Shown here: piece by piece, positions 37,625 through 55,371 of the stretch
How positions within the stretch are numbered: the first letter of the stretch is position 1
Layout of the letters: each line of letters opens with the position of its first letter
NCBI GenBank assembly: GCA_043797085.1
Contig: JAZDQA010000001.1
Coordinates: forward strand, 32,001-96,000
Direction: 5' to 3'
Source: Pseudomonadota bacterium
GTDB taxonomy: Bacteria > Campylobacterota > Campylobacteria > Campylobacterales > Sulfurimonadaceae
Length of the DNA stretch: 64,000 nucleotides
Translations under genes and position numbers: made by a program
Notes under the pieces: generated by a model
Seen by the model: only the letters and a program-made list of their open reading frames with translations
Databases searched by the model: none
Told to the model about the DNA's origin: nothing

Positions 37625-37640
37625 CCATCGTTGTTTTAAA

Positions 37641-37821
37641 GTTACTATTTGTAACATAATCTTTATTCTTCTCGCCCTCTACTTGATAACACCACTGACT
37701 TTTTCTTATTATCCCTTGGATATGTATCAAAACTAGTATAAAAAGCAAAAATAAATATATTTTTGTTACAAAATATAACAATTTGCTGTTGCTATAAAAC
37801 GTATGTGTTTATAAAAGTAAC
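37641..37821. promoter_or_regulatory. Three GTTAC-N5-GTAAC-like palindromes upstream of nuoA
   Basis: 37641-55 perfect, 37765-79 one mismatch, 37807-21 two mismatches. Confidence 0.35.
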
Positions 37822-37943
37822 AGAGTCAAAATAAGTTCTTTTGTATAAGGGTTTGTTTAATTCACTTTTGGTTATAGTGCAATAATTGTTTATTTCAGGC
37901 ATGTAAAAATGCAGGTATACCATAATACAAAAAGGTCGGACTC

Positions 37944-38333
37944 ATGGAGCACTACAACGTAGCAAATCCTTATTTTGGGGTATTTGTGCTGTTTGTACTT
38001 ACGTTTGGGGCATTTTATGCGACAACGGTACTTGCACGCTTAGCCAGTCGCGCGTTAGCGGCTAAAGACACGGAAAAAATAAAACTCTCTCCGTACGAAT
38101 GCGGACCAGAGGTAAGTAAACAGCCAAACCGTATTTCAACGCAGTTTTATCTGTTTGCGTTGTTGTTTTTACTGTTTGATGTCGAAATCGTTTTTATGTT
38201 TCCGTGGGCGATTGATTTTAAATTGCTTGGCTGGTTTGGTTTTGTTGAGATGATGTTGTTTATTCTTCTCTTAACAATCGGATTTGTTTATGCGTGGAAG
38301 AAAGGAGCCCTCGAATGGCACAACATCAAGTAA
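37944..38333 (+). CDS. nuoA: NADH-quinone oxidoreductase subunit A
   Basis: PYECG, FLLFDVE and KGALEW motifs. Confidence 0.96.
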
Positions 38334-38824
38334 ATTATTTAAAAGACGGCGGTCTTCCCGTTGCACTGACCACAATTGATAAAGTCGTTAACTGGGGTCG
38401 CTCCAACTCGTTGTGGGCATTGACGTACGGATTGGCGTGTTGCGGTATCGAGATGATGGCTTCAGGTGCATCTCGTTATGACTTTGACCGTTTTGGTACG
38501 ATTTTTCGTGCTTCTCCGCGTCAAGCAGAGTTGATGGTAGTTGCTGGGACATTGACCAAAAAGCATGCGGAATTTATTCGCCGTTTGTACGACCAAATGA
38601 CAGAGCCAAAATGGGTTATTTCTATGGGTTCATGCGCGAATACGGGCGGAATGTTCAACACGTATGCAACCGTACAGGGTGTGGATCGTGTTATTCCTGT
38701 TGATTTGTATCTTCCGGGGTGTGCACCGCGTCCTGAGACGTTGCAATACGGCGTTATGATGCTTCAACAAAAAATTCGTCGTGAGAGTGCATCTCGTGCT
38801 CAAAAGCCAAAAAGGTTGATGTAA
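38315..38824 (+). CDS. nuoB: NADH-quinone oxidoreductase subunit B
   Basis: [19 protein letters not shown] and PGCAPRPE motifs. Confidence 0.97.
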
Positions 38825-39630
38825 TGAGAGCGTATACTCCAAAAGACAACGTACAAAAGAAACCGTATTACACGGATCGTTATTGGGTCGCTCCACAAGT
38901 TGCGAAACATGACGTGAGCAGTGATGACGTATTTAGTGCAGATCTTGATGCGATTAAAGCAAAATTCGAGGTTTTGGATGCGTATATCCAAGTTGAGCAA
39001 ATGGTGGTCATCATCAATGCGCACGATAATTTCGCTGTCATTGAAATGCTCAAAAATGAGCGTGAATACAATCAGCTTTCCGAAATGAGCGCGATTGATT
39101 GGCTTGCAACTGAAGGAAAATTTGAGATTTTTTATCAAATGTTGAGTATGAGTAAACGTAAACGTCTCCGTATCAAATGTAAAATCGATGAAAAAGAGTC
39201 ACTCCAAAGCGTTGAAAAACTTTTCCGCAGTGCTGACTGGTCTGAGCGTGAGATGTACGATATGTTTGGTGTGGTCGTTAATAACCATCCGTTTATGAAA
39301 CGTATTTTGATGCCTGATGATTGGGAAGGATTCCCATTGCGTAAAACTTATCCGCTTCAAGGCGATGAGTTCGCAGCATGGTACGAAGTTGATAAAATAT
39401 TCGGTAAAGAAGCACGTGAGATTATCGGACCTGAAAACCGTGATCCTGCACGTATCGACCGTTATGATACCGAGCGTTTTTCACGTTTAGGACATGAAGT
39501 GCCACGCGGTACAGATATTACCAATGGTGAGCCGGATACTCCACTTGTGTATCAAGAGCCAGAAGGTGTATTTTTAATCGAAAAATTTGATGCAGAGCAA
39601 TCCGTTGTGATCTCTGATCGCCACCGTTAA
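38824..39630 (+). CDS. nuoC: NADH-quinone oxidoreductase subunit C
   Basis: [11 protein letters not shown] and [16 protein letters not shown] motifs. Confidence 0.95.
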
Positions 39631-39640
39631 GGAGCTATGA

Positions 39641-40867
39641 ATGCAACAATCCAATCGCCTTAGACCCTTTTTTGAAAACATTACGTTTGATCGAGTCGAT
39701 AATGAGATGATCCTTAACTTCGGTCCTCAACATCCATCGGCACACGGACAGTTACGTCTGATGTTGCACATGCAGCAAGAACAGATTACCAAAGCGCATC
39801 CGGACATCGGATACCTTCACCGTGGTATGGAGAAGATGGCGGAGAACATGATCTACAATGAGTTCATGCCGACGACTGACCGTATGGACTATATTGCATC
39901 AAGCTCGAATAACTATGGCTTTGCTCTTGCTGTTGAACGTTTGATCGGTCTTGAAGTTCCGCGCCGTGCGAAAGTCATTCGTATGATGCTGCTTGAAACC
40001 AACCGTCTTATGTCCCACCTTTTTTGGTTGGCAACGACGGCTTTGGATATTGGAGCGATGACCGTATTTTTGTTCGCCTTCCGTGAGCGCGAATATTTGA
40101 TGGATTTGATCGAAGATTATTGTGGTGCGCGTTTGACCCATTCTGCTGTTCGTATTGGTGGGGTGCCATTGGATTTGCCGGATAATTTTATCGGTGATTT
40201 ACGCAAGTTTTTGGATAAATTACCTGAAAATATCAAAGATTACGAAGACTTACTCGATACGAATCGTATTTGGTTGATGCGTATGGAAAATGTGGGTGTT
40301 ATTTCTAAAGAGATGGCGCTTAGCTGGGGCTGTTCTGGTGTAATGTTACGTGCATCGGGCGTTGAGTGGGATATTCGTAAAGAAGAGCCGTACGAATTAT
40401 ACGATGAAGTAGAGTTTAACGTTCCTGTTTCCGACAAAGGGGACAACTATGCCCGTTATAAACTTTACATGGCAGAGATGAAAGAATCAGCAAAAATCTT
40501 GTATCAAGTCCTGGATATGTATTCGGAAACTGAGCCTGCATTAATGGCACACGCACCGCAGTATATTTCTGCACCAAAACTGGATATTATGACTCAAAAC
40601 TACTCGTTGATGCAACACTTTGTCCTCGTGACACAGGGAATGCGCCCACCGGTAGGGGAAGTTTATATTCCAACAGAATCACCAAAAGGAGAACTTGGAT
40701 ATTACATCAATAGCCAAGGTGGAGCCTATCCGTACCGTCTAAAACTTCGTGCTCCATCGTTTTGGCACACAGGTATTTTGACCGATTTGTTACCTGGGCA
40801 CTATATCCCAGACGTAGTATCCATCATCGGGACGACCAATATCGTCTTCGGTGAAGTTGACCGTTAA
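39641..40867 (+). CDS. nuoD: NADH-quinone oxidoreductase subunit D
   Basis: [25 protein letters not shown] and GEVDR motifs. Confidence 0.97.
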
Positions 40868-40878
40868 AAAGGACCTTT

Positions 40879-41109
40879 ATGAAACGTTATGACCTTCGTC
40901 ACCTCAAAGGTGCTTTTGAAAACCGTATGGTTGAAATTATGAAAGAAGAGCAAGACCCGAAAGAAGTTTTGATTTTCTTGTTTGAGATTGGTGATTTTTC
41001 ACCCATACAGCGCAGTGCTGACGTCGTTAAAGAAAGCGGATATGAGATGACAAATTCATTGAAATTTAATGAAGCGGACTGGACCATCGTGGTCAAGCGT
41101 AAGGACTAA
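40879..41109 (+). CDS. Small epsilonproteobacterial complex I subunit at the nuoE position (Cj1575c/HP1264-like)
   Basis: 76 aa; R.DLR, IFLFEIGDF and NSLKFN..DWTIV motifs; no Fe-S cysteines. Confidence 0.8.
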   Translation: MKRYDLRHLKGAFENRMVEIMKEEQDPKEVLIFLFEIGDFSPIQRSADVVKESGYEMTNSLKFNEADWTIVVKRKD

Positions 41110-41111
41110 AA

Positions 41112-43148
41112 GTGAGTAAAGTCTATTTCTCCACATGGCGCGGAGAGCAGATCAACAACATCGGTAAGCCAGAAGAAGAATGGGAAGTATCCGCGTACAA
41201 TCTGCCTGAGCAGTACAACGAGCATGCCCATTCTAAAGCGTTTATCGGTTGGGATGGTTTGGCGCTTTTTAATTCTGATGTTGATGTCGTTCGTTTGGCT
41301 ACGGAATATGCCGCGCAATATCAAGTCTATTCCGAAGCGTGTGGTCGCTGTGCACCGGGGCGATGGGGCGGACGTATTTTATACGATTTGCTTGACAAGA
41401 TTGCTCGTGGTGAAGGCGCACTGAGTGATATGGAACATCTAAAAGAAGTTTCCCGCACGATGCAAGAGACATCAAAATGTGAGATTGGCAAAACCGTTCC
41501 AACTCCATTGCTGGATTTGATGAACCATTTCGAAGCGGAATTTGTAGCATGTATCGAGAGTCAAAAGCCTTCCAAGCACTATCACATGGAAGATACCAAT
41601 TACATTGCCAAAATTACAGCGCCATGTATGGATGCATGTCCTGCGCATGTCGATATTCCGGCTTACATAGAGGGCGTTCGCGATTTACGTTTTGATGATT
41701 CTCTGATGGCAACGCGTCAAACCATGCCGCTGGCTCATACGTGTGGACGGGTTTGTCCTCATCCATGTGAAACCGAGTGCCGTCGTAGTAATCTTGACGA
41801 GCCTATTTCAATCATGGAACTTAAACGTTTAGGTGCTGATTATGAAACCGATCACGGTTTTGGATTTTTTCATCCGTATGCGCAGAAACCTTCAACGGGT
41901 AAAAAAGTTGCGATCATCGGATCAGGACCTGCTGGACTTACGGGTGCATATTACCTTGCCCTTGATGGTGTAGAGGTTGATGTATACGAAGAACTTCCGG
42001 TTCTAGGCGGTGAAGTCGCTGTTGGAGTACCTGAATACCGGATGCCTGTGGATAAATACAATCAAGACATCGAAGCAGTACGTGATTTAGGGGTGAATTT
42101 TATCACCAATACCAAAGTAACTGCAGAGATGATGCGTCAATATGAAAATGATTATGATGGTATTTTGATCGCAACAGGAACGCGTATCTCGAAAAAAGTG
42201 TATTGTGAAAATGAACGTGCTGAGATACAAGGTTATTGGGGAGCGATTGATTTTCTGGATAAAGTAAATCTCGAAGTGAAATACGGCATTATGGTCCCCC
42301 AAGCCGATCAAAAACAACACATGTTAGAGAAAGATTACGTGGATTTGACAGGTAAAACCGTTGTTTGTGTCGGTGGCGGATTTACCTCTATGGACGTTGT
42401 TCGCTGTTCGATTCGTGCCAACGCGGCAAAAGTCGTGATGATCTATCGTCGCGATGAGAGAACGATCATCAATAACACGACATATGAAGAGTATCACGAA
42501 GCGGTCGAAGAGGGTGTTGAGTTTATTTTCCACTCGGCGGTTGCTGAGATGCGCGATGAAAACAACGTTTTAAAATCGTTATTGATTGACCGTTTTGAAC
42601 TAGTTCCTGATCCAAATGGCGGTCGGGCCACCTTAGAAAAAATCGAGGGTGCATCGTTTGAAATGGCATGTGATTATCTCATCCCTGCGGTTTCTCAAAG
42701 TGCCGATTTAAAACTTATACCGCAAGAATGGGAAATTGAACGAACCTCATGGGGAACGATCAAAACCAACGGTAAAGATTACATGACCTCACGCAAAGGG
42801 ATCTTTGCCGCTGGTGACTGCGAATACGGACCGATGACGATTGTCAATGCGGTTGGTCAAGCTAAACGTGCCGCATCCGTTATGTCACGTTATGTAATCA
42901 ATGGTGAAATCACTCTTGCAGATGATGAGATTATGGAAGATCACCTCCGTAAGCTTAAAGTCTATGACAAAAAAGAGAAGATTCAGGGCTGGCTTCCGGG
43001 ACTACCTCGCCAGCACAGTGAAGTTCTCAGTGTAGAAGAACGCCGCGATAATAATCGTGAAGTAAAATATGCATTGACACAAGAAGAAGCGATGTCTGAA
43101 GCGGATCGTTGTATGCGCTGTTATTACATTGCCATGGTGGCACACTAA
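41112..43148 (+). CDS. SfrB/GltD-like Fe-S flavoprotein (NADP(H)-type oxidoreductase) with a NuoF-like Fe-S domain
   Basis: EACGRCAPGR..SKC; APCMDACPAH, CGRVCPHPCETEC; GSGPAG (FAD); GGGFTSMD..YRR (NADP); AAGD; C-terminal EADRCMRC; GTG start. Confidence 0.85.
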   Translation: MSKVYFSTWRGEQINNIGKPEEEWEVSAYNLPEQYNEHAHSKAFIGWDGLALFNSDVDVVRLATEYAAQYQVYSEACGRCAPGRWGGRILYDLLDKIARGEGALSDMEHLKEVSRTMQETSKCEIGKTVPTPLLDLMNHFEAEFVACIESQKPSKHYHMEDTNYIAKITAPCMDACPAHVDIPAYIEGVRDLRFDDSLMATRQTMPLAHTCGRVCPHPCETECRRSNLDEPISIMELKRLGADYETDHGFGFFHPYAQKPSTGKKVAIIGSGPAGLTGAYYLALDGVEVDVYEELPVLGGEVAVGVPEYRMPVDKYNQDIEAVRDLGVNFITNTKVTAEMMRQYENDYDGILIATGTRISKKVYCENERAEIQGYWGAIDFLDKVNLEVKYGIMVPQADQKQHMLEKDYVDLTGKTVVCVGGGFTSMDVVRCSIRANAAKVVMIYRRDERTIINNTTYEEYHEAVEEGVEFIFHSAVAEMRDENNVLKSLLIDRFELVPDPNGGRATLEKIEGASFEMACDYLIPAVSQSADLKLIPQEWEIERTSWGTIKTNGKDYMTSRKGIFAAGDCEYGPMTIVNAVGQAKRAASVMSRYVINGEITLADDEIMEDHLRKLKVYDKKEKIQGWLPGLPRQHSEVLSVEERRDNNREVKYALTQEEAMSEADRCMRCYYIAMVAH

Positions 43149-43159
43149 TGGAGGTCGGG

Positions 43160-45403
43160 ATGATTAATTTTACAATAAACAACCAACCTGTAACGGCGCT
43201 CAAGGGGGAAACCATTCTCCAAGCGGCACGCAAAGCAGGGTTTTATATCCCAACCATGTGTTATTTGGAAAAAACGACACCGTGTGCCTCATGCCGTTTA
43301 TGTGTGGTTGAAACGGATAAAACGGATGGATTGATTTTAAGCTGTCAAACTCCTCCGACACAAGGGCTTGCCGTGACCATCGATTCTGCAAGGTTGCAAG
43401 CAGAGCGGACGAATATTATGCGAATGTACGATGTCAATCACCCATTAGAATGCGGTGTGTGCGACAAATCAGGTGCGTGCGATCTTCAAAACAAGACATT
43501 GGAATTTGGGATATCAAGCCAACATTTCAGTGCAAAAGAACAAAATCGAAAGATTGAACATTGGGGACTGATTAATTACGATCCTTCTTTATGTATTTTG
43601 TGTGAAAAATGCGTACACGTTTGTAATGAAATTATCGGAGATGATGCTATAACTCTTCAGTTTGGCGGATACAAATCAGCTGTTATTCCTAAAAATAGTG
43701 ATGTCCTTGATTGTACTTTCTGTGGCGAGTGTATTGCCGTGTGCCCTGTGGGTGCATTGGTGAGTTCGAAATTTCAGTACAGCGCTAATGCATGGGAATT
43801 GACACAAATTCCTGCTACGTGTGCTCATTGTTCTGCCGGATGTTCACTGACGTATGAAGTGCGTCATACCTCGAATTCTCTTGGAGCAAAGCCGAAAATT
43901 TATCGTGTTACGAATAATTTTGAAGTAGCGACTCTCTGCGGTGCGGGACGTTTTGGATTTGATTTTGACATTCAAGCAGCTAAAGATGAAGTATTATTCG
44001 AAAAAGCGGTTTTGGCATTTCAAAACGCGAAAGCAATCCGATTTAGCTCACTGATTACGAATGAAGAGGCATTGATTTTACAGCGTCTCAAAGAAAAACT
44101 GGGTGTTAAACTCTTTAATGAAGAGGTCAGAGCCTATCAATCCTTTATGAAGGCATACAGCTCAATAAGCGGAAAAAGTGCCTTTAGCGGTTCACTTGAC
44201 GCTATTACACAAAGTGATGCGATTATCGTAATGGGCGGACGTGTGAGTACGGATAATCCTGCCGTTCGTTACGCAATGACCACTGCCGCACGTCATAATG
44301 GAGCAAAAATTGTTTACATGCATCCACTCGAAGATGCCCTTTTACAAAATGTTGTAACGCAGAATATTCGCTATGAAGCTGGTTCTGAAGAGGGTGTTAT
44401 TGCAATGCTCGCACAAACTCTTTTAGAAGGGTGCGATGTAGACGATGCAATAAAAGCCTTTTTGGAAAGTTTGGATGAGGGTTATTTATGCGCTGAATCC
44501 AATGTTGGGGATGAAGAGTTCGCTCAAATTTCAAAATTATTACGACGTGCAAAGTGTAAAACGCTCATTGTCGGTTCGGATGTTTTGAGTCATAATCGCG
44601 CAAGTAACATAGCACGTTTGTGTGCTTTAATTGAAACACATACCGATTTTTCACTCATCATTCTTCCTCTTACTGTCAATACGGTGGGGGTATCCCTTAT
44701 TTGTGATTTGGATAAAGATGAAAAAATGGATAATGTTGTCGGGTATAATTCACAGGGAGATTTCGTTATCGGTTCCATGGGTGAATATACTTTAGCAATG
44801 CCAGCATTAAATAGTCAAGAAGGGACGTTCGTCAGTCTAAACTATCAACTTTTGGCGACGAATGTTGCGGTTGCTTTTGAGGGATATTGTCTGAACGATA
44901 TTGCGCAAGCTTTAGGACTAAAAGCACTGAATACCATTGATTATACGGCACAATTACCAGTAGAAAAAGGGTTTAAAGCGGTAGAATTTGATTTGTTAGG
45001 TAACTTTTATGGAGCACTGGGTGAAGATTATCGCGGATACCAATTGGAGACGATGGATGTTGCCGTAGAGGGTGCGTTGGAAGCCATTGATGATTTGCCG
45101 GAGTTTAACGGAACCGTTATTTATCAGTGCAATCCCGTCAATCAATTCAATGCATATACCGCACGAACATCTCAGCTGGAAGCGGATACATCCCTTCGCG
45201 GTTCAGTGCAGTTTGCTACTGCAGCTCGTATTAGCGATGGAGAGAGTGTCACTATAGAGGGACGTGAGGGAGTTCGAGTGTTTGTCGTTGATGAAACACT
45301 CAAAGGAACCATTGCGCTTTTGCCTACTTATGACACTGCCTTTGGCGGAGTGCATGAGGGTTACCGATTTGACAAAATTAAACTTAAAAGGATGGGGAGT
45401 TAA
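43160..45403 (+). CDS. nuoG: NuoG-like subunit, paralogue 1
   Basis: 2Fe-2S motif (IPTMC..CRLC..SC), HPLECGVCDKSGAC, two CxxCxxCxxxC motifs and CAHCSAGC; GGAGG RBS before 43160 (alternative start 43148). Confidence 0.88.
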   Translation: MINFTINNQPVTALKGETILQAARKAGFYIPTMCYLEKTTPCASCRLCVVETDKTDGLILSCQTPPTQGLAVTIDSARLQAERTNIMRMYDVNHPLECGVCDKSGACDLQNKTLEFGISSQHFSAKEQNRKIEHWGLINYDPSLCILCEKCVHVCNEIIGDDAITLQFGGYKSAVIPKNSDVLDCTFCGECIAVCPVGALVSSKFQYSANAWELTQIPATCAHCSAGCSLTYEVRHTSNSLGAKPKIYRVTNNFEVATLCGAGRFGFDFDIQAAKDEVLFEKAVLAFQNAKAIRFSSLITNEEALILQRLKEKLGVKLFNEEVRAYQSFMKAYSSISGKSAFSGSLDAITQSDAIIVMGGRVSTDNPAVRYAMTTAARHNGAKIVYMHPLEDALLQNVVTQNIRYEAGSEEGVIAMLAQTLLEGCDVDDAIKAFLESLDEGYLCAESNVGDEEFAQISKLLRRAKCKTLIVGSDVLSHNRASNIARLCALIETHTDFSLIILPLTVNTVGVSLICDLDKDEKMDNVVGYNSQGDFVIGSMGEYTLAMPALNSQEGTFVSLNYQLLATNVAVAFEGYCLNDIAQALGLKALNTIDYTAQLPVEKGFKAVEFDLLGNFYGALGEDYRGYQLETMDVAVEGALEAIDDLPEFNGTVIYQCNPVNQFNAYTARTSQLEADTSLRGSVQFATAARISDGESVTIEGREGVRVFVVDETLKGTIALLPTYDTAFGGVHEGYRFDKIKLKRMGS

Positions 45404-45406
45404 ATC

Positions 45407-47893
45407 ATGAATGAAATAACGATAACCATAGACGGCAAAGAGGTACGGACGCAAGAGGGTGAATACATTCTCAATGCGGCGCGTGCCAATGGGATATTTA
45501 TCCCTGCCATTTGTTATCTAACACGCTGTTCACCAACCTTGGCATGTCGTATTTGTTTGGTAGAAGCGGATGGAAAACAAGTTTATGCGTGTAATGCAAA
45601 AGCTAAGATGGGAATGGACATCAACACAAAAACTCCCGTTATTGAAGAAGAAAAACGTGCCATAATGGAAGTGTATGATGTCAATCATCCTTTAGAATGT
45701 GGCGTATGTGATCAATCGGGGGAGTGTGAGCTTCAAAACTACACACTAGAAATCGGGGTCGATTCACAAAGCTATTCGATCAAAGACACCCATAAGCCGG
45801 CACAAGATTGGGGTCTTATCCATTACGATCCTGCCTTGTGTATCATGTGTGAACGTTGTATTACTGTCTGCAAAGATATGATTGGTGATGCGGCACTTTC
45901 TACTGTTGCACGTGGTGGTGAACCTCTTGATGCGGCGTTCAAAGAGTCAATGCCAAAAGATGCTTATGCAATGTGGAACAAACTCAACAAATCGTTGATC
46001 GCTCCAAACGGAGGCGATACGCTTGATTGTACCGACTGTGGTGAGTGTACGTCAGTTTGTCCCGTAGGAGCATTGGTCAGCAGTGATTATCAGTACAGCT
46101 CGAATGCATGGGAACACCAGCAAATTCCGGCAACGTGTGCCCATTGTTCGGCAGGTTGTCAGCTTAGCTACGACATTAAACACACCGATATTGCAAATCC
46201 TGAGGCTAAAATCTACCGTGTCAAAAATGAGTGGAACTATGTCTCTCTTTGCGGCGCAGGACGTTATGGCTACGATTTCCAAAATTCCAATGTCACTAAA
46301 AATCCAGTTGCCTTTGATGCAGCAATCGAAGCATTAAAAAAAGCGGATACCATCGCCTTTACTTCAACGATTACGAATGAAGAGGCGATGATCTTACAAC
46401 GTCTTAAAGAGAAACTTGGGCTTAAGCTCATCAACAACGAAGCACGAGTGTTTAAAAATTTCCTCGACAGTTACAGCGCTGTCAGCGGGCAATCACTTTA
46501 CAGCGGTAATCTCAAAGAAGTTCATGAATCTGATTTTGTTGTTTCCATTGGGACGGCATTGAAGACTGATAATCCTAATGCCCGTTTTGCTATGAACAAT
46601 GCATTATCGATGAATAAAGGCGCTGGATTGTATTTTCATCCGATAAATGATCCGGTTATCGAAGATATGTCAAAAAATCTAACGCAGTTTAACCATGCTC
46701 CAATGATGGAAGAAGCAGCGTTATATTTGATGCTCGACCTTTTTGGCGATAAAACAGCAATGCCTTCAAGCACTGTCGATTATCTCAAAAGTTTTCATTC
46801 TCTTAAAACGGTGACGGTCGAAGAGACGGTCGATGAAAAAGTGACTGAAACGGTCATTAAAAAAGTTCTTAATGAAGAAACAGGCGTTGAAGAAGAAGTA
46901 AGTGAAGAAGTAACGAAAATAGTGAAGAAAAAAGTTTCAAAAGAGATAGAAGTGGATGATAATCGGCTTTTAGCTCTTTTAAATGCACCCGCTGGATTTG
47001 CTGAAACACTGACGAAATATTTAGCGAAAAAAGAGAAATTTTCACTCATGGTCGGACCAGATTTGTATACCCATCCGAATTCAGACAATTGTGCGAGACT
47101 TGTTGCTTTAATTGAAAAATATACAGCGTTCAATGTAACCATGATACCCAATCTTGCTAATACACTAGGGGTTGCACTAATTTGTGACCTTGATGAGAAG
47201 GCTGGTGAATACACAATTGGTTATAATACAGCAGGAGATTTTACGTTAAGTGCATTAGGAAATGGTGATTTGGATATGCCATCACTTAATCAGCAAGAAG
47301 GGACATTGACGAGCATTGATAAGCGCGTTAACCCAACCAATGTGGCACTTCCTTTTGGCGGCTATACCCTAAACAATGTTGCTTCTGCTCTTGGAGTATC
47401 TGCGGCATTGAGTATTGATTATACTGTGCAACTTCCTGTTAGTGCAGGATTTAAAGCGGTAGAATTTGATACGCTGCCAAATCATTACACCAATGCAGGC
47501 GAAGAAGTACGCGGATACGTCCTTGATACTTTAAAAGTACCTTGTGGCAAAGATGAAAATGTTCAAGCTTTCGATGAAAAAGATGCTATGACAACATCTA
47601 TTGTTTATCTCGCCAATCCGGTGTTGCAGTTTACGCCGTTTACTGCACGCGCGCATCAGTTGAATGAAGAGGGCGGTTTGTACGCATCCAGTGAGTTTAT
47701 GAGCAGTAATGGTTTGAACTTAGGTGATAACGTGCGGGTCAAGACTCCTAAGGGTGAGATCGTGGTTTCTGTCATTAATGATTCAAAAATCAACGGAGAT
47801 ATAACGTATCTTCCGACGTTTGACTCAAAAATTAACTCACAAGCATTGTTTGGCGATTATCGCTTTAGCAATGTAACGATTGAAAAGGTGTAG
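45407..47893 (+). CDS. nuoG: NuoG-like subunit, paralogue 2
   Basis: Same five Fe-S motifs, plus MPKDAYAMW and E/K/V-rich insertions. Confidence 0.9.
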   Translation: MNEITITIDGKEVRTQEGEYILNAARANGIFIPAICYLTRCSPTLACRICLVEADGKQVYACNAKAKMGMDINTKTPVIEEEKRAIMEVYDVNHPLECGVCDQSGECELQNYTLEIGVDSQSYSIKDTHKPAQDWGLIHYDPALCIMCERCITVCKDMIGDAALSTVARGGEPLDAAFKESMPKDAYAMWNKLNKSLIAPNGGDTLDCTDCGECTSVCPVGALVSSDYQYSSNAWEHQQIPATCAHCSAGCQLSYDIKHTDIANPEAKIYRVKNEWNYVSLCGAGRYGYDFQNSNVTKNPVAFDAAIEALKKADTIAFTSTITNEEAMILQRLKEKLGLKLINNEARVFKNFLDSYSAVSGQSLYSGNLKEVHESDFVVSIGTALKTDNPNARFAMNNALSMNKGAGLYFHPINDPVIEDMSKNLTQFNHAPMMEEAALYLMLDLFGDKTAMPSSTVDYLKSFHSLKTVTVEETVDEKVTETVIKKVLNEETGVEEEVSEEVTKIVKKKVSKEIEVDDNRLLALLNAPAGFAETLTKYLAKKEKFSLMVGPDLYTHPNSDNCARLVALIEKYTAFNVTMIPNLANTLGVALICDLDEKAGEYTIGYNTAGDFTLSALGNGDLDMPSLNQQEGTLTSIDKRVNPTNVALPFGGYTLNNVASALGVSAALSIDYTVQLPVSAGFKAVEFDTLPNHYTNAGEEVRGYVLDTLKVPCGKDENVQAFDEKDAMTTSIVYLANPVLQFTPFTARAHQLNEEGGLYASSEFMSSNGLNLGDNVRVKTPKGEIVVSVINDSKINGDITYLPTFDSKINSQALFGDYRFSNVTIEKV

Positions 47894-47896
47894 CAG

Positions 47897-48886
47897 ATGG
47901 ATATGGCATTTATCATCGAAACGATTGTTAAAATCGTCGTCATTTTATTAGTGTTCTCGGCTCTTGCCGGGTTAGGTACCTATTTTGAGCGTAAAGTATT
48001 GGCATTCATGCAACGCCGTCTTGGACCGATGCACGTTGGACCTTTTGGATTGCTCCAAGTAGCTGCCGATGGGATAAAGCTTTTTACTAAAGAAGATATC
48101 ATTCCTCAAAACGTAGTGAAACCTATCTTTAAAATTGCCCCTGTCATTACGGCAGCAACAGCTTTTATGGCGGCAGCAGCTATCCCGTTTTGGCCTCAAT
48201 TTACCGTATTTGGTTATACGGTTCATCCTATTGTTGCAGATGTCAATATTGGTATTTTGTACGTACTGGCTGTGATGGCAATTGGTCTTTACGGTCCATT
48301 GCTAGGGGGTATGGCGTCGGCAAATAAGTTTTCATTGATCTCTGCTGCACGAAGTGCTGCCGTATTTATTTCCTACGAAGTGATTAGCGGACTTTCGTTG
48401 CTTGCACCTCTTATGATGGTAGGATCATTGTCTCTCATCGACATTAATAACTACCAAGCAGGCGGAATTGGTAACTGGATCGTTTGGTCACAGCCGGTTG
48501 CGTTTATCCTTTTTTGGATTGCGGCATTTGCTGAAACGGGGCGTACTCCGTTTCACTTGGTTGCCAATGACCACGAGATCATTGACGGATTCGGAACGGA
48601 ATACTCGGGTATGAGATGGGGTCTTTTCTTTATCGGTGAATACGCGAACATGTTCTTTATTTCGTTTGTTATCGCCATCATTTTCTTGGGTGGTTTTGGT
48701 GATGGGACGATTGCCGGAGCATTTCAATTGCTTCTAAAAGTCGCATTTTTCTTTTTCTTTTTCCTCTGGACACGCGCTGCATGGCCAGATGTACGACCGG
48801 ATCAGTTGATGTGGTTATGCTGGAAAGTGTTAATGCCAATAGCTGTGGTCAATGTCGTGATCACCGGCTTTGTGATGATGTTTTAA
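47897..48886 (+). CDS. nuoH: NADH-quinone oxidoreductase subunit H
   Basis: ERKVLAFMQRRLGP, ADGIKLFTKE, ETGRTPF and RPDQLM motifs. Confidence 0.96.
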   Translation: MDMAFIIETIVKIVVILLVFSALAGLGTYFERKVLAFMQRRLGPMHVGPFGLLQVAADGIKLFTKEDIIPQNVVKPIFKIAPVITAATAFMAAAAIPFWPQFTVFGYTVHPIVADVNIGILYVLAVMAIGLYGPLLGGMASANKFSLISAARSAAVFISYEVISGLSLLAPLMMVGSLSLIDINNYQAGGIGNWIVWSQPVAFILFWIAAFAETGRTPFHLVANDHEIIDGFGTEYSGMRWGLFFIGEYANMFFISFVIAIIFLGGFGDGTIAGAFQLLLKVAFFFFFFLWTRAAWPDVRPDQLMWLCWKVLMPIAVVNVVITGFVMMF

Positions 48887-48896
48887 GGAGGGATGG

Positions 48897-49511
48897 ATGC
48901 ATAGTGAACCATTGAACGATCGTAATGTAAGTGAGCATAGCGCTTACTATTACGTCGATATTGAAGAGTATCCAACCACTGGATGGGATAAGTTTAAACA
49001 AGTAGTCAAACGTACCTTTAGAGGTGAATTGTTTGTCGGTTTATGGGTCGTCATGCGTGAGATGATTAAATTTGACATTCATACCGTCAAATATCCACTG
49101 GAAAAGCTTCCAATCGGACCTCGTTATCGTGCAGTACACAAACTATTGCGTTTGTGGGAATCAGGATATGAGCGTTGTATCGGATGCGGATTGTGTGAAA
49201 AAATCTGTATCTCCGATTGTATCCGTATGGACACAAAAATCGATGAAAACAGCCGTAAAGAAGTGACAGAATACAGTATCAATCTCGGTCGTTGTATTTT
49301 CTGCGGTTATTGTGCGGAAGTGTGTCCTGAACTTGCCATCGTTCACGGACAACGTTATGAGAACGGTTCTGAACAGCGTGCTCACTTTGTGATCAAAGAC
49401 GATATGCTCACTCCGCTTGATTTCCTGACATCAGGTCAGCAAGCCGAGTATCCAGGTTTTGGTTCCATCACCCCTAACGAGAGCGTTACCAAAACGCCTC
49501 TTGCGTATTAA
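48897..49511 (+). CDS. nuoI: NADH-quinone oxidoreductase subunit I
   Basis: CIGCGLCEKIC and CIFCGYCAEVCP motifs. Confidence 0.96.
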   Translation: MHSEPLNDRNVSEHSAYYYVDIEEYPTTGWDKFKQVVKRTFRGELFVGLWVVMREMIKFDIHTVKYPLEKLPIGPRYRAVHKLLRLWESGYERCIGCGLCEKICISDCIRMDTKIDENSRKEVTEYSINLGRCIFCGYCAEVCPELAIVHGQRYENGSEQRAHFVIKDDMLTPLDFLTSGQQAEYPGFGSITPNESVTKTPLAY

Positions 49512-49520
49512 GGAGAATAA

Positions 49521-50108
49521 ATGTTTGAAGCAATCGCTTTTTATCTGTTTGCGGCGCTTACCATTGTGATGTTTACCATTACCGTGATGACCTCTCAGGC
49601 ATTGTATGCCCTGACTGCAATGGCAGCAGGGATGATTTTCATTTCAGCCTTTTTCTTTATTTTGGGTGCTGACTTTTTAGGCGCAATTCAAATTATTGTT
49701 TACACCGGTGCGGTGATGGCATTGTATGCATTTGGTATGATGTTTTTCGATACGACACGAAATGTGATCGAAAAACGTTCCAATCCGCGTTTTGTAGTCG
49801 TTCTTGGCGGACTTGCAGCTGTTTTGGTTGTTTTTATCGTCCTTGCCCCTATTGTTACGACGAATTTAAATGCCAATTATCCGATTGATTTGGCGGTAGG
49901 AAACTCACAAGCTATCGGTATGGTACTGTTTACAAAATATTTAGTCCCTTTTGAACTGGCAGCGGTTATGTTGCTGGTTGCGATGATTGCAGGTATTGTT
50001 TTGGCCGGTAAAAAGATGGATAAATCATTGACACTTATGGCAGAAGAAGACATTGCATTGATGCATGCATCATCAGCCGCTGAAATCACACAAGAAGAGG
50101 CGCACTAA
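49521..50108 (+). CDS. nuoJ: NADH-quinone oxidoreductase subunit J
   Basis: QIIVYTGAV and YLVPFE motifs; operon position. Confidence 0.94.
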   Translation: MFEAIAFYLFAALTIVMFTITVMTSQALYALTAMAAGMIFISAFFFILGADFLGAIQIIVYTGAVMALYAFGMMFFDTTRNVIEKRSNPRFVVVLGGLAAVLVVFIVLAPIVTTNLNANYPIDLAVGNSQAIGMVLFTKYLVPFELAAVMLLVAMIAGIVLAGKKMDKSLTLMAEEDIALMHASSAAEITQEEAH

Positions 50109-50413
50109 TGGAAATTACATTAACGCACTATTTAGTGCTATCAACCGTATTATTTGCTATTGGTTTGATTGGGGTTATGCGCCGTAAGAATTTGTTAATG
50201 CTTTTTTTTGCAACGGAAATTTTGTTGAACGCTGTCAATATCGGCATGGCAGCAATTTCTCACTATCGCGGAGATTATACAGGACAGATGTTTGCATTTT
50301 TTATTATTGCAATCGCGGCGTCCGAAGTAGCTGTAGGTCTGGGTCTTCTTATTGTATGGTACAAACGTACCGGTAAGATTGATCTTGATCAAATGACATC
50401 GATGAGAGGATAG
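50108..50413 (+). CDS. nuoK: NADH-quinone oxidoreductase subunit K
   Basis: EILLNAVN and AASEVAVGL motifs. Confidence 0.95.
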   Translation: MEITLTHYLVLSTVLFAIGLIGVMRRKNLLMLFFATEILLNAVNIGMAAISHYRGDYTGQMFAFFIIAIAASEVAVGLGLLIVWYKRTGKIDLDQMTSMRG

Positions 50414-50418
50414 GACAG

Positions 50419-52308
50419 ATGGAAGTTTATTTATACATTGCATTGTTTGCTCCGTTGGTGGGTTCACTCTTTGCGGGATTGTTTGGTGCATATCCAAAAA
50501 TGCTCTTTACGGGGGTAATAGCTTCAGGATTGCTTTTTGCATCTTTTGTAAGCAGTGCCATTTTGCTCAATTATGTTCTAGCCGGACACACCGTACATGT
50601 TGAAATGATGACATGGATCGCGGCTGGAGACCTTTATATTCCTTTTGGTTTTGTGGTTGACCAAGTGAGTGTGACGATGATGATGGTTGTCTCTGTCGTC
50701 TCTACTGTTGTTCACGTCTACTCTATTGGTTATATGGCGCACGACAAAGGGTTTAACCGTTTCTTCTCGTACCTATCGGCTTTCGTTTTCTCGATGATGG
50801 TTTTGGTTATGAGTGATAATTTTTTAGGTCTCTTTATCGGATGGGAAGGTGTGGGCTTGTGTTCATGGCTTCTTATTGGTTTTTGGTATCATAAAGAATC
50901 TGCTACATGGGCAGCAAATGAAGCCTTTATTATGAACCGCATTGCCGACTTGGCGATGTTGATCGGTATCTTTATGATGTACTGGAATCTGGGTTCTCTT
51001 CAATACGATGTTGTTTTCGCTAACATTGGAAATCTTCCGATGCACGTCATCACATGGATTGGTATTTTCCTCTTTATCGGTGCGATGGGTAAATCGGCAC
51101 AATTTCCGCTCCATACATGGCTTGCGGATGCGATGGAAGGTCCTACTCCTGTCTCGGCACTGATTCACGCTGCAACCATGGTTACAGCCGGTGTCTATCT
51201 TGTTGTCCGTGCAAACCCTATCTACAGTGAAATTCCTGATGTAGGAATCGCGATTGCATCACTGGGAGCATTTGTTGCAATGTTTGCAGCAACCATGGCA
51301 TTAGTCAATCGCGATATGAAGCGTATCATTGCGTATTCGACTCTTTCACAGCTTGGCTATATGTTTGTAGCAGCTGGTTTGGGAGCGTATTGGGTAGCAT
51401 TGTTTCACCTTATGGCACACGCATTTTTCAAAGCATTATTATTCTTGGGAGCAGGTAATGTTATGCACGCAATGCACGATGAACTTGATCCGTTTAAGAT
51501 GGGTGGTTTGAAAAAATCAATGAAAGGCACATGGATATTCATGACACTTGCTTCCGTTGCACTTGCGGGTATTTATCCTCTTGCCGGATTCTTTTCGAAA
51601 GATTTGATTTTGGAAGTTGCATTTGTTGAACAGCATTATATTCTTTACACCGTATTATTACTGACAGCTGGATTGACCGCATTTTACTCATTCCGTCTTG
51701 TTGCATTGATTTTCCATGGTAATGAGAGACATTTAGAACACGGTATTCATCCACATGAAGCGTATAGCTTTATGTTGTATGCCATGGCTCCGTTGGCTGT
51801 TTTGGCAGTTATCGCCGGTATGGTATTTAAAACCCCATATTATTTGATGGTAACGAATCTTTTGCCATCTATGACGTATCATATCCATAATCACACGACA
51901 TTTTGGATTATGACAATCGGTACTCAATTGTTTGTGATTGCAGCAATTACGTATGCATACAAAAAATACGCAAAAGCCGTTAAAGTGGATAAAAAAGTGG
52001 AATCAGGGCTGTTGTATCAGTTGCTTTACAATCAATACTACATCCCTAAAATTTACGATGAAGTCTTTTCAAAACCGTATTTGAAGCTCTCTAAACTTGC
52101 ATGGAAAGAGATTGACTTAAAAATCGTTGATGCAACGGTAGACGGAATTGCAAATGTAATTTACCGTACGGGCGAAAAGACACACACAATGCAAAACGGC
52201 AATCTTTCCAGTATGTTACGCTGGATGGTTATTGGTTTAGTGGTTTTATTGGTACTTGCTGTGGCGTTTACTGCGGGTTATAACGCAGTCAACCTGCAGG
52301 CAATGTAA
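50419..52308 (+). CDS. nuoL: NADH-quinone oxidoreductase subunit L
   Basis: GKSAQFPLHTWLADAMEGPTPVSALIHAATMV. Confidence 0.97.
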   Translation: MEVYLYIALFAPLVGSLFAGLFGAYPKMLFTGVIASGLLFASFVSSAILLNYVLAGHTVHVEMMTWIAAGDLYIPFGFVVDQVSVTMMMVVSVVSTVVHVYSIGYMAHDKGFNRFFSYLSAFVFSMMVLVMSDNFLGLFIGWEGVGLCSWLLIGFWYHKESATWAANEAFIMNRIADLAMLIGIFMMYWNLGSLQYDVVFANIGNLPMHVITWIGIFLFIGAMGKSAQFPLHTWLADAMEGPTPVSALIHAATMVTAGVYLVVRANPIYSEIPDVGIAIASLGAFVAMFAATMALVNRDMKRIIAYSTLSQLGYMFVAAGLGAYWVALFHLMAHAFFKALLFLGAGNVMHAMHDELDPFKMGGLKKSMKGTWIFMTLASVALAGIYPLAGFFSKDLILEVAFVEQHYILYTVLLLTAGLTAFYSFRLVALIFHGNERHLEHGIHPHEAYSFMLYAMAPLAVLAVIAGMVFKTPYYLMVTNLLPSMTYHIHNHTTFWIMTIGTQLFVIAAITYAYKKYAKAVKVDKKVESGLLYQLLYNQYYIPKIYDEVFSKPYLKLSKLAWKEIDLKIVDATVDGIANVIYRTGEKTHTMQNGNLSSMLRWMVIGLVVLLVLAVAFTAGYNAVNLQAM

Positions 52309-52318
52309 GGAGAATTTG

Positions 52319-53866
52319 ATGCAAGAACATATTTTATCGATTTTGATTTTTTTCCCGGCATTGGCAGCAATGTTTGGATTTGTGGTTCATAAGGACAGCG
52401 TTCGTGCCTACGGAATCACCGTAGCAGCAATCGAATTTTTCCTCTCATTGTGGTTGTGGAATTTGTATGACCCTATGACGTCGGGAATGCAATTTATGGA
52501 GATGGCACCTCTTGTGTCGGCATTTGGTATTAGTTATCTGGTTGGTGTTGATGGTATTTCACTCTTTATTATCATTTTATCGACGTTCTTTACCTTAATC
52601 GGTATCGCTTCTCTGACTGAGAAACGTCGCGTAAAAGATTTAATTATTACGTTGCTTTTTTTAGAGATGACGATGGTCGGGGTATTTGCGGCACTTGATG
52701 CGATTGTCTTTTATGTTTTTTGGGAATTGTCGCTTATACCAATGTTGTACATCATCGGTGCATGGGGCGGACCGCTTCGTATTTATGCGTCGATTAAATT
52801 TTTCCTTTACACTTTTACGGGATCATTAGTGATGCTTGTTGGTATGCTGTTTATGGCATATTTTTATTATCAAGCAACCGGTCAATGGAGTTTCTCACTT
52901 CTCGAATGGTATCGTTTGATTCTACCGGTTAATATACAACTATGGCTATTTGCTGCATTTTTCTTGGGCTTTGCGATTAAAGTCCCGATGTTTCCATTTC
53001 ACACATGGCTGCCGTATGCACACGGGCAGGCACCGACTATCGGTTCTGTAATTCTTGCGGCAATTTTGCTCAAAATGGGAACGTACGCATTTGTCCGTTT
53101 TTCACTCCCATTGTTTCCGGATGCATCGGTTGTCTTTATGTTCCCAATCGCGATACTTGCGATTATTATGATTGTCTATGCGGCGATGGTAGCATACGCC
53201 CAAGAGGATATTAAACAAGTTGTAGCGTATAGTTCTATATCGCACATGGGTGTTATTATTCTAGGGATTTTCGCACTCAATGTAGAGGGAATTACCGGTT
53301 CCGTCTTTTTAATGATTGCGCATGGGGTTGTATCGGGAGCATTGTTCTTGTTGGTCGGGGTTATTTATGATCGCCGCCATACAAAACTTATGTCTGAATT
53401 TGGAGGATTAGCGTCCGTCATGCCTCGCTATGCAACCATTTTTGGAATTATGATGATGGCATCGGTCGGTTTACCGCTTACCATCAACTTTGTGGGTGAA
53501 TTTTTGAGCTTGCTTGGTTTTTATAAACAGTCTCACTCGTATACGCTCGTAGCAGGTACCGCAATTATCGTAGGTGCTATTTATATGCTCAGTGCGTATA
53601 AGAAAGCATTTTTTGGAACCGTAACGAAAGAAGAGAATAAAAATCTCAAAGATGTCAATCGTACAGAATTACTCGGTCTTGTTCCGTTGGTTGTGGTTGC
53701 AATATGGCTGGGTGTGTACCCAAAACCGCTTCTTGAACCAATTAACAACAGTGTTGAATCGATTGTGCAATTGATGCATGATAAAGCACAAACAACGGAA
53801 GCTAAACAACGCATCCCTGATCTTGCCCATTCGGCAGGATTGAATTCAATGCAGGAGGCACACTAA
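52319..53866 (+). CDS. nuoM: NADH-quinone oxidoreductase subunit M
   Basis: [25 protein letters not shown] and FVGEF motifs; ATG 52319 after AGGAG. Confidence 0.96.
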
Positions 53867-55371
53867 TGTTAGAGCCAATTTCGATTTCGTTAGCCTCACT
53901 CAACATTACGACGATGGCTCCTATGTTGATTGCCATTGTCGGAGCATTGGCTATTTTGTGTATTGATTTAGTGAAAGAGGGTCTCCACAAATCTTTCTAT
54001 GTCATGGTAAGTTTACTTTTCTTATTGCTTGATTTGGGAGCGGTTGTTGATTTTGGAAATGTTTTCCTTAAAAACGGTACCGTTCTTGGTATGTTTGATA
54101 TGATGCTTATTGATGGTCTTGCTATTCTTTCACAGATCATTATTGTGGCGGGCTCCATGCTCTTTATCCCTTTGGCGCTCACGTCTAAGCGATTTCATGA
54201 GTATAACTATCCGGAGTATTTTGCCCTTTTCTTGTTTATGATTGCAGGTTTTCAATTTATGGTTGCCAGTGATAATCTTATCTTGATTTTTGTGGGACTT
54301 GAAACCGCTTCTTTGGCATTGTATACCCTTATTGCTCTTCATAACCGATCTAAATCGTTTGAAGCAGCAGTCAAATACTTTACCATGGGAGCACTAGCAG
54401 CAGGCTTTTTTGCTTTTGGTTCGATGATTTTTTACGCGATCACTGGGTCCGTTGAAATCAACCAAATAGCAGTAGCCCTTGCAAAAGACGAGTACGTCAA
54501 TATCGGTTTTGTCCTTGTTGCTGTTGTTTTCTTGTTGGCTGCTATCGGATTTAAACTCTCCATGGTTCCTTTCCATACATGGACTCCAGACGTTTATGAA
54601 GGTTCTTCTGCCGCATTAGCCGGATATATGTCGATTGTTCCTAAAATCGCGGGTTTCGTTGTTGCGATGCGCTTATTTGAATTCCTTGTCCACAGCGGAG
54701 TTGTATGGTTACAAGTTGTCCTTTATGTAGCAGTTGTAGTGACGATGACGGCATCCAATATCTGGGCATTGGTTCAAAACGATGTTAAGCGAATGTTGGC
54801 ATACAGTTCTATTTCCCATGCGGGTTTTGTTATGGCTGCAATTTTGATTGGAACAACTCAAGCCAATACCGCACTTTTCTTGTATTGGGCACTGTTTAGC
54901 TTCACGAATTTGGGTGCATTCTCAATGTTGTGGGTCAGTCGTCAGAAAAATCTAATTCCGGGACAAAGTTCGGATCATCCGTATGAAAAATTTGCAGGAC
55001 TTGTACATACCATGCCAATGGCTGCCATTATGATCGGCTTGTTTATGCTATCTCTTGCCGGAATTCCTCCCTTTGGTCTTTTTTGGGGTAAAATCTATAT
55101 GATTGGATCTGCGGTGAGCGCCGGATATACAATTCTTGCGTTAATTATGGCATTGAACTCTGCGATTGCAGCATATTACTATCTAAAACTCATCGTCTTT
55201 ATGTTTATGAAAGAGCCGATTCCTGAATATAAAAAATATTATTTGATGAATGCATCTCTGTCTCTTAAAACGATTATCGGGATTGCAGCGATTGGAACGA
55301 TCTTCGCCGTATTTGCCGTCAATCCACTTTTAAAAGTCATTACATTATTTGTGTATAATAGCGGATATTAA
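53866..55371 (+). CDS. nuoN: NADH-quinone oxidoreductase subunit N
   Basis: [34 protein letters not shown] and SLAGIPP motifs. Confidence 0.96.

Follow-up and report, generated by a model that had tools for sequence, protein, structure and literature searches.

An SfrB-like flavoprotein and two NuoG copies in a Campylobacterota nuo operon: a candidate NADP(H)-linked complex I and a proposed origin of NuoY

A long input head between nuoD and nuoH

In Sulfurimonas denitrificans the complex I genes include a flavoprotein (Suden_1824) followed by a short (Suden_1823) and a long (Suden_1822) NuoG, a layout described by McNichol and Sievert (bioRxiv 10.1101/717884), who credit Weerakoon and Olson 2008 with first noting it. 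In that preprint Suden_1824 is an NfnB-like replacement of NuoF that carries Tyr-Arg-Arg (YRR) and is found with the short and long NuoG across Sulfurimonas and Sulfurovum; the authors propose that reverse electron transport reduces NAD(P)+ and ferredoxin through bifurcation, and the supply of NADPH and reduced ferredoxin for the reductive tricarboxylic acid (rTCA) cycle of sulfur-oxidising Campylobacterota is treated as an open question. The free-standing SfrAB system has been given a role in NADP regeneration with reference to Coppi 2007 (PMC13186404, PMC2825233, PMC3543383, PMC7894505, PMC7483475; PMC4453560 served as general context only). Here a nuo operon with the layout of McNichol and Sievert was analysed in a stretch of 64,000 nucleotides (the window; positions 32,001 to 96,000 of contig JAZDQA010000001.1, assembly GCA_043797085.1) from a Sulfurimonadaceae genome of 2.40 Mb that is 95.9% complete. 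Its flavoprotein and two NuoG copies, G1 and G2, are termed the long head, and the operon carrying it is the leading candidate for the NADPH/ferredoxin supply. The original prediction, made from the sequence alone, had arrived at this layout and at NADP(H)-linked reverse electron transport; both were already in print (bioRxiv 10.1101/717884). The locus is a further case of the described layout, to which an SfrB assignment, a case against flavin bifurcation and an origin for NuoY are added. A literature search, with most subscription journals outside its scope, returned no paper that connects NuoY with NuoG, or the flavoprotein with SfrB.

The operon is complete at window positions 37944-55371 on the + strand, in the order nuoA-B-C-D, nuoX, flavoprotein, NuoG1, NuoG2, nuoH-I-J-K-L-M-N. 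The four genes expected between nuoD and nuoH were confirmed, nuoX at 40879..41109, the flavoprotein (678 aa, GTG start) at 41112..43148, NuoG1 at 43148..45403 and NuoG2 at 45407..47893, all on the + strand with gaps of at most 11 nt (nuoD-nuoX 11, nuoX-flavoprotein 2, flavoprotein-G1 -1 or 11, G1-G2 3 and G2-nuoH 3). The most likely start of NuoG1 is ATG 43160, preceded by GGAGG and giving 747 aa; most analyses used the 751-aa version from ATG 43148, and the start in the list of open reading frames (ORFs) is TTG 43109. The absence of NuoE and NuoF was borne out by tblastn, with no match to either E. coli protein at E 1e-4 in the 95.9%-complete genome, so that the NuoE 2Fe-2S and NuoF flavin mononucleotide (FMN)/NADH pair of a canonical 14-subunit NADH:quinone oxidoreductase was not found. 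A single NuoD-type complex I was found in the genome. Close homologues bearing names were mostly from Sulfuricurvum or Sulfurimonas, and the layout is present in named Sulfurimonas, Sulfuricurvum and Sulfurovum loci.

By its domains and homologues the flavoprotein is an SfrB-family protein. Pfam placed PF10589 at residues 73-146, followed by PF14691 and PF07992, with NCBIfam and PDB matches alongside. The N3-like Fe-S domain contains C77, C80, G83 and C123 (residues 77-83 at window 41340-41360); the predicted NuoF-like Fe-S segment is present as domain PF10589 but not as a four-Cys site, with Gly83 at the third position. In a census of 125 sequences (70 of the epsilon type, many of them close kin, 24 SfrB, and 22 plus 9 other homologues) Gly replaced the third N3 Cys in 70/70 epsilon and 24/24 SfrB proteins, and Cys was found in 18/22 and 9/9 of the others; the three-Cys motif suggests a [3Fe-4S] cluster or a non-Cys ligand. 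The GltD-type two-cluster domain comprises C172, C176, C211, C215, C219, C223, K238, C667 and C670, the flavin adenine dinucleotide (FAD) fold G270-G275, R310 and D569, and the pyridine-nucleotide fold G421-S426 and Y445-R447. An AlphaFold model with a predicted local distance difference test score (pLDDT) of 91.5 had its best fold matches in NfnA(BC) and StnC, then NfnB.

The kinship with SfrB, proposed originally from the N-terminus, was upheld; the GltD-type core of NfnB is about 32% identical. In a search of 1.84 billion cluster representatives the best full-length match beyond the cluster of its own phylum was P0122 (40% identity, E 1.5e-140), whose group holds Desulfuromonadales proteins and in which P0402 (77% to P0122) bears the UniRef label 'NADPH-Fe(3+)...', one partial label. 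At 50% identity the nearest outside cluster is one with a UniRef-named NADPH-Fe(3+) oxidoreductase. The 962-aa P0121 ranked above P0122 and matched residues 42-155 and 136-675 of the flavoprotein in two pieces (45-50% identity) separated by about 270 residues. In a quick tree the epsilon flavoproteins were sister to SfrB with modest support (Shimodaira-Hasegawa-like approximate likelihood ratio test, SH-aLRT, 82); the SfrB set consisted of SfrB-type relatives other than the characterised G. sulfurreducens protein. A GTDB genome scan with the P0122 group gave 598 confirmed loci, 80 of which were kept: 26 SfrB-type loci outside the phylum, mostly Desulfuromonadia, 45 Campylobacterota-type loci and 9 long fusions in other phyla. 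A NuoG-like (SfrA) gene lay directly behind SfrB in 24 of the 26 outside loci, the other two being cut by contig edges, and no nuo operon was found within 8 kb of any of the 26. In all 45 Campylobacterota-type loci nuoX was directly upstream of the flavoprotein. Proteins of about 1,010-1,060 aa from Chloroflexota, Planctomycetota and Desulfobacterales carry the N3 and GltD unit behind a long N-terminal part and adjoin NuoG/Fdh-like genes (L078, L085, L086, L095, L097, L103, L110, L114, L120).

The flavoprotein is likely, but not securely, to prefer NADP(H). YRR, the 2'-phosphate (NADP) residues named for NfnB (bioRxiv 10.1101/717884), was conserved in 125/125 homologues, and NADP(H) is therefore favoured. 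Of the predicted NADP(H) signature GGGFTS..YRR this half stood. The other half did not, as GGGFTS, found in 70/70 epsilon flavoproteins, is a lineage-specific departure from a family signature GGGN[TV]A, with Ala at the last position in all 55 others. NAD-specific folds usually have an acid at the position of the first Arg. The sites behind YRR have also changed, to D448 in 68/70 and E449 in 69/70 epsilon sequences where SfrB has T/S followed by R (24/24), and the epsilon proteins are without the EMPA segment, F424 and S426 being the further changed sites.

Residues around the flavin argue against bifurcation at this site. K238, Lys in 70/70 epsilon sequences, aligns with StnC K170 and with the Glu of NfnB/NfnL that is a ligand of the FAD-proximal [4Fe-4S] cluster; E236 had been considered as an NfnB-type Glu ligand and was rejected, the ligand position being K238. 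StnC has a non-bifurcating FAD and Lys170 at its FAD-proximal cluster where NfnB has Glu (PMC10482914). PF10418, by which an NfnA partner with its [2Fe-2S] cluster and second FAD would be recognised, was not found in the 95.9%-complete genome, in a search whose control matched in 6/14. It is the StnC-type Lys together with this negative that speaks against flavin bifurcation, and the flavin-adjacent Arg, R310, is conserved.

Distribution of the long head and the descent of its NuoG copies

Evenly drawn from the phylum, 251 genomes of no less than 90% completeness, with kin that are not independent, were surveyed for the long head. The N-terminus of the flavoprotein was matched in 50 of them, comprising 48 full-length orthologues and two weak matches, one of which is a canonical NuoF, and epsilon-type NuoG was present in 203. 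At least two NuoG matches were obtained in 42 of the 48 flavoprotein genomes, five more show both copies in their loci and one is cut by a contig end; all 155 genomes without the flavoprotein had exactly one epsilon-type NuoG, and none of the sampled genomes kept G1 alone. The 24 long-type survey loci all read nuoD-nuoX-flavoprotein-G1, with 22 continuing to G2-nuoH and two ending at a contig edge. Together with 45 further loci this shows that the gene order recurs widely, as had been suggested originally for related genera. ATP citrate lyase (PF16114) was found in 47/251 genomes: 38 had lyase and flavoprotein, 10 the flavoprotein only (8 of family f2, 2 of f6), 9 the lyase only and 194 neither. 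By these counts the link between module and autotrophy is strong but not exclusive: 38/48 flavoprotein genomes have the lyase, and confinement to autotrophs fails in the 10/48 without it.

To judge from size and layout, families f2, f3, f7, f11 and f5 probably correspond, in rough terms, to Helicobacteraceae, Campylobacteraceae, Arcobacteraceae, Sulfurospirillaceae and Nautiliaceae. Several variants were seen besides the long and short types. Three f5 loci (L130-L132) have an 11-subunit complex I-like operon with fused C/D, no E/F/G and 32-33% NuoD identity, in genomes with ATP citrate lyase and no flavoprotein match. Some f7 and f3 genomes have canonical nuoEFG with a short NuoG (459-478 aa) that is not of the epsilon type (L127-L129), and NuoD had no match in 3/3 f2 genomes checked (genera g6, g17, g26). 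Eleven long-type genomes have a third NuoG-like match at E <1e-40 (G011, G152, G213, G219, G014, G032, G034, G040, G067, G072, G121), perhaps a subunit of formate dehydrogenase or hydrogenase. In L001 (10181-12550; G216, a one-contig genome) the long-type G2 is split into 309- and 537-aa frames by a frameshift or sequencing error, with flavoprotein and G1 intact.

The two NuoG copies are 44% identical in pairwise alignment, and each bears five cluster motifs in this genome. G1, the short copy, carries the motifs of N1b, N5, N4, an extra [4Fe-4S] cluster and N7 ahead of a molybdopterin-fold C-terminal part and invariably adjoins the 3' side of the flavoprotein. G2, the long copy of 828 aa, has two inserts that are missing in G1. 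Against PRK08493, the epsilon-type NuoG family with an NCBIfam cut-off of 591 bits, G1 scored 874 and G2 1176 bits. A tree of the Fe-S region (65 rows with sparse outgroups, including 10 short-type operons) joined G1 and G2 in one Campylobacterota clade (support 99), in which G2 was monophyletic (100) and included the single NuoG of all 10 short-type operons. On this tree G1 and G2 are in-paralogues and G2 is orthologous to the single NuoG of short-type operons. This tree did not make SfrA sister to G1+G2; by raw score SfrA was closer to G1 than to G2 in 23/24 outside loci. It had been proposed that an SfrAB-like module was grafted into nuo. The SfrB-like flavoprotein is in keeping with this; G1 as a simple import of SfrA seems less likely, given the single Campylobacterota clade.

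The ligands of N1b, N5 and N4 were invariant in both copies. Among long-type operons, 3/23 have lost the N7 ligands of G2, and in L017 neither copy has them; the extra-cluster ligands are gone from G1 in 2/25. These losses indicate that neither cluster is required, which argues against the published bifurcation sites. All four N7 Cys of G2 are replaced in families f3, f7, f10 and f11, whatever the head type (L013, L014, L017, L021-L032, L037-L039, L126). N7 of G2 was also considered as the link from G1 to G2 and discarded, its ligands being lost in 3/23 long-type and kept in 7/23 short-type G2.

The 76-aa subunit ahead of the flavoprotein is free of Cys as predicted. Its identity was already known: it is NuoX, orthologous to H. 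pylori HP1264 (PF16514, E 3e-37; PDB 2LXR, E 5.5e-24), a protein with a TusA-like fold that is reported to bind FMN (PMC6269979). In 23/24 short-type loci nuoX and nuoG are separated by a gene of 231-350 aa that occupies the place of cj1574c (PMC4178425), and it is for this position that its product is called NuoY here. The exception, L123 (G039, 3816-6444), has nuoX followed by a NuoG split into 305 and 510 aa without NuoY or flavoprotein, and its head is decaying or mis-sequenced.

Profile comparisons in both directions related NuoY to G1. A profile from 19 NuoY genes scored G1 at 56-212 bits and G2 at 5-64, and a G1 profile matched NuoY in 23/23 cases at 73-217 bits, compared with 3-83 for a G2 profile. 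The matches always fell in two segments, G1 residues ~345-505 (44180..44665, + strand, with a conserved acidic D-x-G-Y-L among the alignment invariants) and ~635-750 (to residue 751 at 45050..45400, + strand, a double-psi barrel). Profiles were relied on because the acidic motif of G1 and NuoY, written as a strict regular expression, was matched by just 13/23 NuoY, along with 13/24 G1 and 0/45 G2. A NuoY model, whose alignment included G1 fragments, reached pLDDT 96.6. Over its whole length it resembled molybdopterin-fold proteins (Z 16.3, root-mean-square deviation 2.9 A over 214 residues), NuoG chains gave Z 8.7-9.1, and residues 147-221 folded like double-psi beta-barrel (DPBB) domains. The NuoY query itself matched no Pfam family; Molybdopterin was matched in 7/41 alignment rows, a set that includes 18 G1 fragments. 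By this homology NuoY is an Fe-S-less, trimmed remnant of G1. In the present operon, which has NuoX, no stand-alone NuoY of 230-340 aa with a single NuoG was found, and the NuoY-homologous segments are part of full-length G1.

The trimming appears to have been repeated. In a tree on 235 shared columns f2 NuoY grouped with f2 G1 (98), f7 NuoY with one f7 G1 (83), and f3+f11 NuoY stood together apart from these (97); a single NuoY clade was modestly rejected (approximately unbiased test, p 0.032, in a quick tree with long branches). A NuoB/C/D/H/I tree of 40 operons intermixed long and short types within f2 and f7; it was built with FastTree, has weak deep branches and is unrooted, the f5 enzyme with 33% NuoD identity being unsuitable as outgroup. 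The simplest reading would be an ancestral long head that was cut down some three times independently, always to the same pair of domains. For one short-type locus the complex of NuoY and G2 was predicted (41-row alignments); this gave a median of 0.32 (runs 0.68, 0.25 and 0.32; controls 0.00, 0.00 and 0.17) and was not used as evidence.

A proposed electron path and the readings against which it was weighed

The genes, motifs, family membership, co-occurrence, G1/G2 paralogy and NuoY homology described above are observations at the sequence level, from which we infer protein contacts, cluster order, NADP(H) preference and direction. The reading to which we give slightly better than an even chance is a complex I that connects NADP(H) to menaquinone through the long head, with both NuoG copies in one proton-translocating assembly. 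NADP(H) would exchange hydride with the FAD of the flavoprotein, a plain two-to-one-electron converter that would not bifurcate, and electrons would pass between FAD, the two GltD-type [4Fe-4S] clusters and the three-Cys N3-like cluster, all within the flavoprotein. They would then run through N1b-N4-N5 of G1, N1b-N4-N5 of G2 and NuoI/NuoB to menaquinone, or in reverse, coupled to proton translocation. G2 would dock on NuoCDI; it is the likely docking copy because in blue-native gels NuoC and NuoD run together with C. jejuni NuoG, which is of the G2 type (PMC7717971). The flavoprotein may sit on G1 as SfrB does on SfrA, and G1 may be held in the assembly by the C-terminal domains that persist elsewhere as NuoY. 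The retention of these cluster-free domains is the main argument for a role of G1 in the G2-bearing complex and not as an alternative head. Flavodoxin input has been assigned to Cj1574c, probably with Cj1575c (PMC4178425), and NuoX with the C-terminal region of G1 may accordingly form a second port, the likely one for flavodoxin or ferredoxin.

In this rTCA autotroph the enzyme would probably act mainly in NADP+ reduction from menaquinol driven by the proton-motive force (pmf), and in relatives without rTCA in NADPH oxidation. The genome has ATP citrate lyase, a flavodoxin gene and at least five ferredoxin-like ORFs, and no PntB was found in it. With menaquinol at about -75 mV and a pmf of 150-180 mV, menaquinol electrons could be raised by 300-360 mV. 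Complex I moves four protons per two electrons (PMC7717971), and physiological NADPH lies at -380 mV with ferredoxins at -440 to -580 mV (PMC13147460). A lift of this size would reach NADPH but hardly such ferredoxins.

Several points weigh against the serial NADP(H) assembly. N5 is invariant in G1, which fits equally well with G1 docking directly on NuoI. The nucleotide loop GGGFTS / YRRDE departs from GGGNTA / YRR[TS]R of SfrB, and on this account the NADP(H) preference is less secure than originally predicted, although an NADP(H)-linked complex I is still the best reading. Nine ATP citrate lyase genomes are without the flavoprotein (6 f5, 3 f11). SfrAB has no nuo operon nearby at any of the 26 outside loci, so complex I is not needed for the pair to work, and nuoX (Cj1575c) is essential in C. 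jejuni and C. coli (PMC10077673), a hint that it may also act outside the membrane complex. Another candidate for an NADPH-flavodoxin route is a CxxC-less protein of thioredoxin-reductase fold (G000:C9:4008-4877, L167; 318 aa, 41-49% identity to the homologues of four relatives), presumably FqrB. In one genome the operon is split between G1 and G2 (L074, 8001-12292): it ends after G1, followed by unrelated genes that we take to be fabZ-, lpxA-, clpX- and mreB-like, and G2 is on another contig. Neither a biochemical study of the long-head enzyme nor other biochemical or structural data on any long-head complex turned up in the literature search. Separately, replacement of the flavoprotein by an FqrB-like enzyme in short types was considered and found no support, a CxxC-less homologue being present in all 5 genomes checked, long and short and this one among them, and L040, a guessed continuation of a broken contig, contained no nuo genes.

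Two other arrangements of the same parts seem unlikely to about the same degree. The two heads might be swappable, as was also suggested at the outset, with flavoprotein+G1 and NuoX+G2 docking in turn on the same NuoCDI site to give an NADPH and a flavodoxin/ferredoxin form; each copy does have a complete N1b-N4-N5 wire, the N5 ligands are kept in 25/25 G1 and the copies are 44% identical. A head without clusters would be useless as an alternative, yet where the flavoprotein was lost G1 was trimmed to NuoY, its Fe-S-free part persisting beside G2 in 23/24 short-type loci, apparently several times over, and no sampled genome has G1 alone, which disfavours this idea. Alternatively the flavoprotein and G1, with or without NuoX, might be a soluble NADP(H):flavodoxin/ferredoxin oxidoreductase akin to SfrAB, sharing no more than its regulation with complex I and exchanging electrons with it by a diffusible carrier. 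The SfrAB loci without a nearby nuo operon, the description of SfrAB as a soluble reductase in NADP regeneration (PMC13186404, PMC7483475), the essential nuoX, the one operon split after G1 and the omission of NuoX and NuoY from the subunits listed with NuoCDG in C. jejuni blue-native gels (PMC7717971) all fit such a unit. It is at odds with the position of the genes between nuoD and G2/nuoH in the 24 survey and 45 further loci wherever the contig reaches, with one exception, and with G1 being apparently a duplicate of the docking NuoG and not an imported SfrA; the FqrB-like candidate, moreover, already offers a soluble route.

Bifurcation from menaquinol to NAD(P)+ and ferredoxin at a fixed 1:1, split at the NfnB-like flavin or at NuoG N4/N7 as McNichol and Sievert propose, we regard as more improbable still. 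The homology to NfnB, the conserved R310, the five cluster motifs per NuoG and the strong rTCA association (38/48) speak for it, but the proximal-cluster ligand is Lys as in non-bifurcating StnC and not Glu, no NfnA domain and no NuoE/NuoF-like HydBC module were found in the genome, and N7 and the extra cluster, lost in some operons, are dispensable. Uncoupled branching to both NAD(P)+ and ferredoxin is possible. Least probable, and to us very doubtful, is a flavoprotein switched to NADH or relaxed in specificity within a functionally ordinary NADH:menaquinone complex I: the lineage-wide changes of the nucleotide site (F424, S426, D448, E449 and loss of EMPA) would allow it, against which stand the fully kept YRR and closest relatives that are NADPH enzymes.

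Taken further, the serial assembly leads to a wider proposal that we hold tentatively, at somewhat less than an even chance. The epsilon-type complex I would originally have had the long head: a single assembly whose two NuoG work in series, where NADP(H) enters at G1 through an SfrB-type port that does not bifurcate, and where NuoX and the G1 C-terminal domains make up another port for flavodoxin/ferredoxin. In rTCA autotrophs it would act as a pmf-driven NADP+ reductase. The flavodoxin-fed Campylobacter/Helicobacter enzyme would have arisen from it convergently, on three or more occasions, as the flavoprotein was lost and G1 was cut back to the same two domains; NuoY, taken for a novel subunit, would then be a NuoG fragment without Fe-S clusters. 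Should the serial model be true, complex I would here contain two NuoG subunits and bind NADP(H) directly. From the comparisons come a likely NADP(H) subunit of the SfrB family, its likely partner in G1 and a likely docking copy in G2; they also provide a probable fold and origin for NuoY, which has been described as a lineage-specific NuoF replacement.

Expression, flanking genes and described systems

Transcripts were sought in groundwater metatranscriptome contigs from a strain at least 99% identical, which gave depth in 30/30 bins of 36500-56400. RNA-library contigs bridge nuoC-D-X-flavoprotein (39396-41573), G1-G2 (44608-45957) and G2-nuoH (46465-48502), and the flavoprotein-G1 junction is bridged by a contig of a relative. 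This evidence consists of assembled contigs, without strand, start or level; it is compatible with one transcript but is not proof of it, and DNA carry-over is possible. RNA runs X2-X7 were set aside, the small share of matching words telling nothing on habitat. A promoter scan was at chance level (38 against 45.5 expected), as was a terminator scan (17 against 16.5). The upstream half of the operon, nuoA, nuoB, nuoC and nuoD, lies at 37944..40867, its ORFs scoring above the NCBIfam cut-offs, and nuoH, I, J, K, L, M and N, i.e. the membrane arm with NuoI, at 47897..55371, likewise above cut-off; both are on the + strand. The 3' end of nuoN is overlapped by a 795-aa ORF of the same strand (55349-57736), which on visual inspection looks rich in tetratricopeptide repeats.

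The Suden_1824-1822 system shares with the present locus the gene set, its order, short and long NuoG with the same two indels, the YRR argument and the proposal that NAD(P)+ is reduced through reverse electron transport. McNichol and Sievert differ in likening the flavoprotein to NfnB, with 0 occurrences of 'SfrB' in the sections compared, in invoking bifurcation and in restricting the system to autotrophs, and those sections draw no link to NuoY. The NuoXY-type complex I of C. jejuni and H. pylori has the same NuoX, G2-type NuoG and operon frame and also lacks NuoEF (PMC6682613, PMC4178425). It has, however, neither the flavoprotein nor the Fe-S half of G1, and what is encoded at the place of NuoY is by homology a trimmed G1. 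SfrAB agrees in full-length architecture (38-41% identity), Gly83, Lys238 and the order of flavoprotein then NuoG-like gene; it is free-standing with one NuoG-like partner, whereas the present module lies within nuo, has a pair of in-paralogues as its NuoG and shows a remodelled nucleotide loop. StnC and NfnA(BC) (PDB 8OH5, 9BOV, 9N5U) are the best PDB sequence and fold matches and share the proximal-cluster Lys and a GltD-type NADPH/FAD unit connected to the Fe-S chain of a NuoG-like protein, the FAD of StnC being non-bifurcating. In StnABC/NfnABC, however, one polypeptide joins the GltD unit to the NuoG-like part, and electrons go on to a soluble bifurcating module of HydBC type. The present flavoprotein is a subunit of its own that has an N3-like domain; no HydBC module was found beside it, and its gene belongs to a membrane complex I operon. 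With NfnB/NfnL (PDB 4YLF, 5JCA) the flavoprotein has in common the GltD-type core at ~32% identity, YRR and the flavin-adjacent Arg, and it differs in Lys for Glu, an extra N-terminal N3-like domain, a C-terminal CxxC and the lack of a detectable NfnA in this genome.

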